The notes under the pieces were generated by a model. That model was not told where the DNA came from and ran no database searches. It was given only the letters and a program-made list of their open reading frames with translations. From Escherichia coli (GTDB lineage: Bacteria; Pseudomonadota; Gammaproteobacteria; Enterobacterales; Enterobacteriaceae), in the NCBI RefSeq assembly GCF_044324875.1, contig NZ_CP172185.1: DNA of 64,000 nt; one strand, given 5' to 3'. Both the position numbers and the translations under genes were made by a program. Positions 28,395 through 31,764 of this stretch are shown in pieces. Each line of letters starts with the position of its first letter. Positions within the stretch are counted from its first letter, which is position 1.

Positions 28395-28760
28395 TTATTT
28401 TTGCACTACGATATTTTCTTGTGACGGATCAACATGCTGCATTTGCAGCTTTTCCGTGGCGATCCTTTCCACCCGGCTATGGTCGCCGAGCGCATTCTCT
28501 TCAAGGATCAGGTTGCGCCATTCAATGTCTAAAGCATCTCGCTCCAGCACCAGTTGTTCGCGCTGAGCGGTCAGTAAACGGGTATGGTGCGCCGTGGTTA
28601 CCACGGTCACCGCCGTCAAAATAATGCAAATGAACAGGCAGAGTGGCAGCTTCCCAAATCGCAAAAGATCGTCACCGATAACACCAGGCAATGCATGGCG
28701 CTCGTGGCTTCCCATCGATCCTTTAACTTTGCTTAGAGCTTCTGTCACTCTGCTGATCAT
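28395..28760 (-). CDS. ftsL: Cell division protein FtsL
   Basis: 121 aa small bitopic protein between rsmH and ftsI. Confidence 0.95.
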
Positions 28761-29698
28761 GCGTTCGTCCTCTCTGCAATACGCAGAACTGAACTACGGG
28801 CACGAGGGTTCTCAGCCACCTCTTCTTCGCCCGGCATTAACTTGCCTAGTGCTCGCAGCTGACGGCCACCCAGTTTTTTGAGCTGCTCTTCAGTCATCGG
28901 TAACCCTGCCGGAACTTGCGGACCGCGGCTGTTTTCACGCATAAAACGTTTCACAATACGGTCTTCCAGCGAGTGGAAGCTGATGATCGAAAGCCGCCCA
29001 CCCGGGGCCAGCACGTTGAGCGAGCTTTTTAGCGCCTGCTCTATCTCCTCCAGTTCACTGTTTACCCAAATGCGCACCGCCTGGAAGGTACGGGTCGCGG
29101 GATGTTTAAACTTATCTTTCACCGGCGTTGCGGCAGCCACGACTTCCGCCAGTTCTTTGGTGCGGGTCATCGGCTGTTCGCGGTTTCGCTCGACAATGGC
29201 GCGGGCAATGCGTTTGGCAAAACGCTCTTCACCATAGGTTTTCAATACCCAGGCGATATCGGCTTCTTCTGCGGTTTGTAGCCATTCAGCGGCTGACTGC
29301 CCACGGGTTGGGTCCATACGCATGTCCAGCGGACCATCGCGCATAAAGGAAAAGCCGCGTTCAGCATCATCAAGTTGCGGTGAAGAGACGCCAAGATCGA
29401 GGAGAATGCCGTCGATCTTGCCGATAAGATCGCGCTCGGCAACATATTCGCCCAGCGCGGAGAAAGGTCCGTGGATGATGGAGAAGCGCGGATCATCAAT
29501 AGTCTTCGCAACGGCGATAGCCTGCGGGTCGCGATCGATCGCCAGCAAACGCCCCTCTTCGCCAAGCTGCGAGAGGATCAGCCGTGAGTGACCACCGCGA
29601 CCAAAAGTCCCATCAATGTAGATGCCATCAGGACGGATATTGAGGCCATTAACGGCTTCATCCAGCAGCACCGTAGTATGTTTATAGTTTTCCATCAT
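28757..29698 (-). CDS. rsmH: 16S rRNA m4C1402 methyltransferase RsmH (MraW)
   Basis: 313 aa starting [19 protein letters not shown]; the 356-aa track ORF is an upstream in-frame extension that overlaps mraZ. Confidence 0.95.
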
Positions 29699-29699
29699 T

Positions 29700-30158
29700 T
29701 TATAGAGACAAGTCCTGCAGTCGCTCCGATAAGTCTCCGGTAGCCAACTGCTCTGCGTCGATATCTTCCTTGACCTGTTGATGCCAGGTTGTTTCATCCC
29801 ACAGCTCAAACTTGTTGAACTGTCCAACCAGCATCACTTCTTTTGTCAGCCCGGCATGTTGCCGCAGTACTGGCGCGATTAACAATCGACCTGCGCCATC
29901 CATCTGACATTCGCTGGCATGACCTAACAGTAGGCGCTGCACACGGCGCTCAACCGGGTTCATGCTCGACAGACGCGATAATTTTTGCTCGATAATTTCC
30001 CATTCAGGCAGGGGGTAAAGCAGCAGGCACGGGTGATGAATGTCAATGGTGCAAACCATTTGACCGGCAGCGTTCTCAAGCAGCTGTTCCCGATAACGGG
30101 TAGGCACTGATAAGCGCCCTTTGCTGTCGAGATTGACTAACGTTGCTCCCCGGAACAT
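29700..30158 (-). CDS. mraZ: Transcriptional regulator MraZ
   Basis: 152 aa starting [19 protein letters not shown]; track ORF extended upstream. Confidence 0.95.
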
Positions 30159-30177
30159 GCCAGCCTCACCCCTTATT

Positions 30178-30239
30178 CCCACTTTGCCCCACAATTTCCC
30201 ACTGAAAGGAGTTTACGGAGCGGAGGAAAAGCTTGTCAA
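30178..30239 (-). promoter_or_regulatory. Pmra promoter (-35 TTGACA, -10 TAAACT) with three GTGGG direct repeats in the leader (MraZ operator)
   Basis: Minus-strand TTGACA, 17-bp spacer, TAAACT; downstream three CCCAC (plus strand) repeats at 30178, 30188 and 30198 with exact 10-bp periodicity. Confidence 0.6.
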
Positions 30240-30759
30240 GCCAGTCACAAGGCATACCGAGGTAAAAAACCCGATGTTTACGGCTAATATCAGCGTTGTT
30301 TATTTTACGTCCAACGTGCGAAGCAAATTAACGTTATGAATAGCTGTAAGAAAAAATCCCTCATCGTCATCACCGTTTTAAAATGACTCACTATTTTCCA
30401 CAGCAAATATAAAGTGTCAGTTTGCGACGCGAGCGGCATTTTAGGACATATCTTCCCCGGTTAACAGTCCCTGTTGCGTCTGTGTGGCGCTTGATGCCAG
30501 CGGGTTTGCGCAAAAGCAAAGAAAAGTGTTTGTTAAATCGGCAATTCATCTCTGCATGTAACAAAATAATGCAAAAACGCGCTATCGATATCACTTAATT
30601 ATTGTGAATTTCAGCTGGTGAGGTAATTAACGGGCAGGTTTAAAAGCATTTATCAATAATAGCCAGGAATAGTCTTATTTACTTTAAGGATATTGATGTC
30701 CATTCCCGTACTCAACGCGCCAGAGAGAAATTCACCTGGCGCGTATTTTTGTTCGCGGC

Positions 30760-31764
30760 TTAGCTACGGCTGAGCACGCCGCGGCGATAGAGATTACGTT
30801 TAATGCGCGTTAAACCAGGTTTTGGCTTACGCGGTTCGTCCAGGCTTGCCAGGACAATCTCCAGCACACGCTCTGCGACATCGCGGTGACGTTGAGCCAC
30901 TGCCAGCACCGGGCACTGTAAGAAGTCGAGCAGTTCGTTATCGCCAAAGGTGGCAATTGCCAGGTCAGAAGGCAGTTTGCCGTCACGACGTAGCGTGACA
31001 TCCATCACCCCTTGCAACAACGCAAACGACGTTGTGAACAGTGCCTGCGGCATCGGATGCGTTTCCAGCCATTTTTCGAATAACTGGGCAGCCGCCTCCC
31101 GCTCATAGCTGTTGGCATAAAGGAAATGCACTTCGCGCGGATCATCTTTCCAGGCAGTACGGAAACCTTGTTCACGCAGGAAGCTGACAGAAAGCTCCGG
31201 CAGCGCGCCAAGATAAAGTACCGTCTCGGCGGGAAACTTACGTAACTCTTCCGCCAGCATTTCGGCATCATCCTGATCGGCACCAACCACGCTGGTGAAG
31301 TGTTCACGATCGAGGGCGCGGTCCAGCGCGACAATCGGGAACGGGTCGTTAGCCCAGCGTTGATAAAAAGGATGCTCAGGTGGCAACGACGTCGAAACAA
31401 TAATGGCATCAACCTGACGCTGTAAAAGGTGCTCAATGCAGCGCATTTCGTTGTCGGGCTGATCTTCCGAGCAGGCAATCAGCAGTTGATAACCCCTTTG
31501 CCGCGCCTGGCGTTCAAGATAGTTAGCGATGCGGGTATAGCTGGTGTTCTCCAGATCGGGGATCACAAGACCAATAGAACGTGTGCGTCCAGCACGAAGC
31601 CCAGCTGCCACGGCGTTCGGGTGGTAATTGTGCTCACGCACCACAGCCATGACTTTTTCAACGGTTTTGTCGCTCACACGGTATTGCTTCGCTTTGCCGT
31701 TAATAACATAGCTTGCAGTGGTCCGCGACACTCCCGCCAGCCGAGCGATTTCATCCAGTTTCAC
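30760..31764 (-). CDS. cra: Catabolite repressor/activator Cra (FruR), LacI family
   Basis: 334 aa, N-terminal [26 protein letters not shown]. Confidence 0.97.

Follow-up and report, generated by a model that had tools for sequence, protein, structure and literature searches.

Pmra and three direct MraZ boxes at the head of the dcw cluster of an Escherichia coli genome

To describe the region upstream of mraZ, we used a stretch of 64,000 nucleotides from the Escherichia coli contig NZ_CP172185.1 (assembly GCF_044324875.1), hereafter called the window. The genes cra, mraZ, rsmH, ftsL and ftsI follow each other in this order on the minus strand, which is the arrangement found at the head of the dcw cluster. 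The intergenic region in front of mraZ carries a promoter, Pmra, and three short direct repeats, referred to as DR1, DR2 and DR3 or as boxes 1 to 3, and DR3 ends about 20 nt upstream of an intact mraZ. Read on the minus strand, the order of elements is GGC TTGACA AGCTTTTCCTCCGCTCCG TAAACT CCTTTCA GTGGG AAATT GTGGG GCAAA GTGGG AATAAGGGGTGAGGCTGGC ATG. The coordinates of the individual features are listed in Table 1.

Table 1. Features of the cra-mraZ-rsmH region, with positions counted from the first nucleotide of the window
Feature	Position	Strand	Remarks
cra	30760-31764	-	601-bp intergenic region between cra and mraZ
Pmra -35 hexamer, TTGACA (consensus)	30234..30239	-	invariant in 82/82 sequences
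Pmra promoter spacer, 18 bp, AGCTTTTCCTCCGCTCCG	30216..30233	-	length 18 bp in 82/82
Pmra -10 hexamer, TAAACT	30210..30215	-	invariant in 82/82
Transcription start, G	30202	-	inferred from K-12 Cappable-seq; first base of DR1
MraZ box DR1, GTGGG	30198..30202	-	+1 to +5; GTGGG in 81/82
MraZ box DR2, GTGGG	30188..30192	-	+11 to +15; preceded by conserved TT; GTGGG in 81/82
MraZ box DR3, GTGGG	30178..30182	-	+21 to +25; preceded by invariant AAA; GTGG in 82/82
Shine-Dalgarno region, GGTGAGG	30164..30170	-	5 nt before ATG; probable, assigned by position
mraZ CDS	29700..30158	-	152 aa + stop; ATG at 30158-30156
rsmH (mraW)	28757..29698	-	next operon gene, followed by ftsL and ftsI; PF01795, E 7e-124

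The product of mraZ matched PF02381 (E 4e-47) in two stretches, representing two MraZ (SpoVT/AbrB-like) domains, and it contains the DXXXR motifs DSKGR (residues 11-15) and DGAGR (residues 87-91), both of which were kept in all 82 MraZ proteins that we compared. Over its full length the protein is identical to MraZ of K-12 at 151 of 152 residues, the sole change being Y41H (Y in K-12, H in the window). With regard to this residue (codon at about 30036-30038), histidine is the family consensus and was found in 72 of the 82 sequences. A match to the Rfam family osmY inside the mraZ coding sequence scored 19.9 bits (E 0.085) against a gathering score of 46.9 and was taken as chance.

The sequence-only reading, made from the letters of the window by a model, had described Pmra as a near-consensus promoter with its hexamers TTGACA and TAAACT separated by 17 bp. 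Both hexamers are present as described, whereas the spacer between them measures 18 bp and not 17. The combination TTGACA-18-TAAACT agrees with the sigma-70 consensus at 10 of 12 positions and its spacer length falls inside the range of 16-18 bp, as judged by which Pmra qualifies as a sigma-70 promoter. TTGACA-N18-TAAACT occurs once in the 64-kb window, against 0.04 occurrences expected.

To place the transcription start, we took advantage of Cappable-seq data from MG1655, which show a start at position 89590 of U00096.2 on the + strand with an RRS of 27.2, the strongest in the region (PMC4782308 supplement); no start is listed in that table at 89595 or 89596. Position 89590 maps to G30202 in the window, that is, to the first G of box 1 and the 8th nucleotide after TAAACT, and a primary 5' end, measured in K-12, is thus found at the expected distance from the -10 hexamer. 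For this mapping, the coordinates of U00096.2 and NC_000913.3 were taken to be equal over the first 90 kb, an assumption with which the start of mraZ at 89634 in NC_000913.3 agrees. Counted from G30202 the leader is 44 nt long, and given the K-12 start all three repeats lie inside this transcribed leader, where the sequence-only reading had also located them. An mraZ 5' UTR of 38 nt is given for E. coli by older literature, as quoted in two papers, PMC7761207 among them; with a leader of that length, transcription would begin at 30196, at an odd distance of 14 nt from the -10 hexamer. It should be underlined that the positions of the boxes relative to +1 are uncertain by 6 nt because the two leader lengths, 44 nt from Cappable-seq and 38 nt, disagree. 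In the 30170-30161 bin, which covers the Shine-Dalgarno region, the majority fraction was 0.95.

The three GTGGG copies start at 30178, 30188 and 30198 on the plus strand, just as had been claimed for them, and their 10-bp period is exact. When both strands of the 64 kb were searched, GTGGG-N5-GTGGG-N5-GTGGG was found once, and in none of 100 dinucleotide-preserving shuffles; the relaxed pattern GTGG-N6-GTGG-N6-GTGG likewise occurred once in the window and in 0 of 100 shuffles. Generic repeat detection (seed 6) and Tandem Repeats Finder (score 30) did not report the boxes, because their core is too short for such programs. As defined in PMC12957436, an MraZ operator comprises three or more directly repeated GTG(G/T) cores, and arrays of three such boxes with 6-nt spacers have been described there. 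The array in the window consists of three such repeats, each with a 4-nt core and a 6-nt spacer; it immediately precedes mraZ at the head of dcw, downstream of the -10 hexamer and overlapping the start, and the cognate MraZ encoded downstream of it possesses two DXXXR DNA-binding motifs. The earlier suggestion that the repeats match the reported architecture of the MraZ operator was thereby borne out with respect to the threefold GTG(G/T) core, the 6-nt spacers and the location downstream of the -10 hexamer.

Conservation of these elements was studied in a footprint set of 82 sequences, composed of the window, K-12 and 80 related loci, the latter obtained by a protein-guided scan with one genome per species and having MraZ proteins that are 88-96% identical. 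The records of 79 of the 80 related loci are titled Enterobacteriaceae, and the exception is titled Chryseobacterium. GTGG-N6-GTGG-N6-GTGG was present in every one of the 82 sequences, and the gaps between DR1 and DR2 and between DR2 and DR3 were 5 nt throughout. Column entropies showed both hexamers, TTGACA and TAAACT, to be invariant, together with most of the spacer between them, GTGG(G), AAAGTGG and the TT in front of DR2, while the columns just upstream of -35, the three bases before DR1, the two after DR2 and those from the fifth base of DR3 onward were near-neutral. In these species, the four-fold degenerate sites of mraZ had a mean entropy of 1.05 bits, with 3% of them invariant. Since the box cores and their phase are invariant while these degenerate sites vary freely, the comparison indicates that cores and phase are under strong purifying selection across Enterobacteriaceae. 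The position of the array relative to promoter and ATG is less constrained, with 4 to 8 nt between the -10 hexamer and DR1 and 18 to 29 nt between DR3 and ATG among the 82 sequences. The third box occurs as GTGGT (54 sequences), GTGGC (15), GTGGA (11) or GTGGG (2), its fifth base being G only in the two E. coli sequences, whereas the 80 related genomes all have T, C or A there. From the invariance of the cores in 82/82 sequences, set against the free variation of the four-fold degenerate sites, the conserved recognition unit is judged to be GTGG at a 10-bp period, and not GTGGG.

Moreover, the DR3-to-ATG distances (30159-30177 in the window) showed two classes, one of about 19 nt (56 sequences) and one of about 29 nt (16 sequences), the difference being one indel of the 10-bp period. 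At the in-phase fourth position, many species have a G-run, GGGG or GGGT; it could represent a fourth box in degenerate form or simply the Shine-Dalgarno region. The record titled Chryseobacterium (sp. 18061; CACSKA010000010.1) contains an mraZ of the Enterobacteriaceae type, with a protein 93% identical to that of E. coli, and a Citrobacter-like Pmra region; this public assembly is probably mislabelled or contaminated.

The sequence-only reading had proposed a comparison with Pmra of K-12 (mraZ1p; Hara et al. 1997, Eraso et al. 2014), and the stretch from the -10 hexamer to the ATG turned out to be identical in the two. Locus, hexamers, boxes, Shine-Dalgarno region and ATG are the same, and over the interval that begins about 240 bp before the -35 hexamer and ends at the ATG the sole difference is a C in the window against an A in K-12 at spacer position 30222; in the protein, the difference is H41 against Y41, as described above. 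In a 700-bp comparison with MG1655, the scattered differences were confined to the distal intergenic region, apart from this spacer base. Among 5426 complete E. coli genomes, 5423 had a match to a 701-bp stretch around the operator, with 96-100% identity and with mraZ and cra as the annotated features. The 90-bp stretch covering promoter, operator and ATG was identical to the window in 3508 of the 5423 genomes, and the K-12 allele was carried by 1309. Three sampled E. coli genomes that match neither main allele have a C>T change at 30204 (-2 of the start). All three alleles, those of the window and K-12 and the one with C>T at 30204, retain the -35 hexamer, the -10 hexamer and the three boxes. 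The C at 30222 is both the family consensus and the majority allele in E. coli, and K-12 has the minority or derived allele at this spacer position as well as at MraZ residue 41.

Two further observations were made among the 5423 genomes. E. coli WS3294A (NZ_CP035819.1) was the only one with a 5-bp deletion of CAGTG, equivalent to 30200-30204 in the window, with which the start site and the first three bases of box 1 are lost; the deletion reflects either natural variation of operator and promoter or a mistake in the assembly. Of the 5423 matches to the cra-mraZ region, three were on plasmid-labelled records, which are probably mislabelled replicons.

The arrangement in the window was also compared with MraZ systems outside the enteric bacteria. 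In Mycoplasma genitalium, cryo-EM has shown MraZ on a four-box DNA with one subunit per box (PDB 9qlg, 9qlr and 9sx6), a cradle-like motif contacting the bases with K13, R15 and R86, and the ring of the MraZ octamer opens so that it can follow straight DNA (PMC12957436). The M. genitalium operator resembles the one in the window in having direct GTG(G/T) boxes with a 10-bp period and a transcription start at a G inside box 1, whereas it consists of four AAAGTGT/G boxes instead of three GTGG boxes, and its MraZ is an octamer while that of E. coli has been suggested to be a dodecamer (PMC12957436). The two proteins are distant relatives (E about 1e-11); in their alignment K13, R15 and R91 of E. 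coli correspond to K13, R15 and R86 of M. genitalium, with DSKGR opposite DNKNR and DGAGR opposite DSANR. For Mollicutes in general, the MraZ site has been given as (AAAGTGKN3)3 (PMC5282649). MraZ of Bacillus subtilis is, like that of E. coli, a repressor that binds a threefold repeat, and R15 and R86 of its DXXXR motifs are needed (bioRxiv 10.1101/2022.02.09.479790). In contrast to the window, however, the B. subtilis repeats read GTGG[A/T]G and are 4 nt apart, and unlike in E. coli co-expression of mraW gives no rescue from excess MraZ (bioRxiv 10.1101/2022.02.09.479790).

In E. coli, Pmra is repressed by MraZ, which binds to repeats located beyond the -10 box on the downstream side (PMC7761207), and the binding sites of MraZ have been termed MraZ boxes (PMC8475190). 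We consider it very probable (about 0.93) that the locus in the window represents this system, namely the sigma-70 promoter Pmra at the head of the E. coli dcw cluster together with the MraZ operator, which form an autorepression circuit. For K-12, whose box region is identical to that of the window, Eraso et al. 2014 reportedly found direct, sequence-specific binding of purified MraZ to three direct repeats situated between Pmra and mraZ, as well as repression that depends on the boxes. Besides mraZ and rsmH, Pmra drives many essential genes of division and cell-wall synthesis, and the MraZ feedback is, to our knowledge, the only known dedicated regulation of this promoter.

With regard to mechanism, RNA polymerase would use TTGACA-N18-TAAACT and start at G30202, the start site shown for K-12, giving a Pmra transcript that would cover mraZ-rsmH-ftsL-ftsI and genes beyond. 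With their 10-bp period, the three GTGG boxes between +1 and +25 would all face the same side of the helix, and each of them would be held by one subunit of an oligomeric MraZ through the cradle-like DXXXR motifs with K13, R15 and R91. As suggested by the M. genitalium cryo-EM, the MraZ ring would have to open along the DNA for such binding. Located over the start and the initially transcribed region, MraZ would block either the formation of the open complex or promoter escape, presumably by steric hindrance that keeps RNA polymerase away or holds it at the start. By being bound across the start site, MraZ would thus repress its own synthesis and that of the promoter-proximal downstream dcw genes, a repression that has been reported for K-12. 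The sequence-only reading had taken autoregulation of the cluster to be intact in this strain. From the intact cis and trans parts we may reasonably infer the same: all parts of the circuit are present and unaltered, and the circuit is therefore most likely functional.

The spacer and the region upstream of Pmra displayed further conservation. When 75 sequences were aligned in register, 13 of the 18 spacer positions were fully invariant and one more was 99% conserved. This near-frozen spacer contrasts with the freely varying synonymous sites of mraZ in the same sequence set, and its near-invariance could be due to a constraint on promoter geometry or to an additional binding site. Upstream of Pmra, a block at 30401-30450 is conserved with majority fractions of 0.80-0.98 across 79 sequences, and it holds a -10-like hexamer, TAAAAT, at 30443-30438. 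A K-12 Cappable-seq start at 89360 (RRS 9.4; PMC4782308 supplement) maps to 30432, which would imply a further promoter upstream, with a leader of 274 nt that includes Pmra and the MraZ boxes. Another conserved block of about 33 bp, TTTTTTCTTACAGCTATTCATAACGTTAATTTGC, is found at 30322-30354 and contains the palindrome TAACGTTA. In E. coli it is overlapped by a hydrophobic ORF of 21 codons, ATGACGATG... (30368-30303, minus strand), which we judged not to be coding, its ATGs not being conserved and single-base indels occurring among species. Because of these unconserved ATGs and indels, the block at 30322-30354 is probably a DNA or RNA element and not coding sequence.

PdhR has been reported to bind weakly upstream of mraZ, the sequence of the site not being given (PMC3265435). 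A scan with the PdhR box (ATTGGTNNNACCAAT, at most 3 mismatches) gave 25 matches in the window against 28 expected, and none of them in the intergenic region; the closest PdhR-box-like sequence, AATGGTGCAAACCAT at 30045-30059, lies inside mraZ and has 3 mismatches. Since PdhR-box matches occur at the rate of chance, the reported weak site near mraZ could not be located. A second regulatory site, situated in the Pmra spacer or in the upstream conserved blocks and acting together with MraZ on dcw expression, is in our opinion unlikely.

A different explanation for the repeats is that their four sense-strand G-runs form a G-quadruplex (G4), in the DNA or in the 5' UTR, which controls dcw instead of or besides MraZ. 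The minus strand does carry, at 30169-30200, the four-run G3+ N1-7 motif GGGAAATTGTGGGGCAAAGTGGGAATAAGGGG (GGG-N7-GGGG-N6-GGG-N5-GGGG). In Staphylococcus aureus, a G4 in the mraZ promoter, in an equivalent G-rich repeat region, has been characterised biophysically, its conservation in Gram-negatives has been claimed, and a G4 ligand combined with a permeabiliser kills E. coli CFT073 (PMC11796246). A putative G4 motif can be written for the E. coli sequence, but the three-tetrad motif of the window is not conserved in the 80 relatives. Among the 81 other sequences, K-12 is the only one that has it; it is absent from the 80 related genomes because their third run is only GG. Nor are G4 motifs enriched in the window, as judged by 4 occurrences against 1.9 +/- 1.4 in shuffles. 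A G4 would also leave unexplained the invariant T of each GTGG, the invariant AAA and TT before the boxes and the strict 10-bp phase, and in the S. aureus study itself the effects of the G4 were not separated from those of losing the MraZ boxes (PMC11796246). Control of dcw by a G4 therefore seems very improbable to us. The fifth G of DR3, specific to E. coli, is the base that completes the canonical G-quadruplex motif; that it adds a species-specific layer of control through this motif is conceivable but unlikely.

Even less credible is the view that the repeats act in the 44-nt leader RNA, either as the site of a translational regulator (e.g. a GGA-binding protein) or as a structure governing access to the ribosome-binding site. 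The Cappable-seq start does place all three repeats in the transcript, and GGGAA is present at repeats 1 and 3; however, most species have lost the GGA that follows repeat 3. The fold of the leader is ordinary (minimum free energy -13.1 kcal/mol, z = +0.63 against shuffles), with the repeat part unpaired, and a scan of 29600-30900 against Rfam gave no family at threshold. A 10-bp period with invariant cores is instead the mark of DNA recognition on one helical face, and the equivalent box array of M. genitalium has been shown to bind MraZ as double-stranded DNA (PMC12957436). That the repeats are a functionless chance feature of a G-rich ribosome-binding region, a suspicion which a repeat unit of just 4-5 nt and the silence of generic repeat finders might raise, is refuted by cores and spacing that are invariant in 82/82 sequences amid variable neighbouring positions and synonymous sites, along with the 0 of 100 shuffles that contained the pattern.

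The promoter and self-repression site of the E. coli division cluster are already known, and with an intact known site and near-identity to the laboratory strain the locus in the window is an ordinary instance of them. Loss of MraZ in E. coli has no apparent phenotype (PMC8475190), and MraZ at its native levels may autoregulate only modestly. With promoter, three boxes and MraZ all intact, an annotator may take the standard circuit for this strain, with the refinements that the promoter spacer is 18 bp, that the repeated unit is GTGG, and that the transcription start measured by Cappable-seq falls on the first G of box 1, giving a leader of 44 nt and not the often quoted 38 nt.
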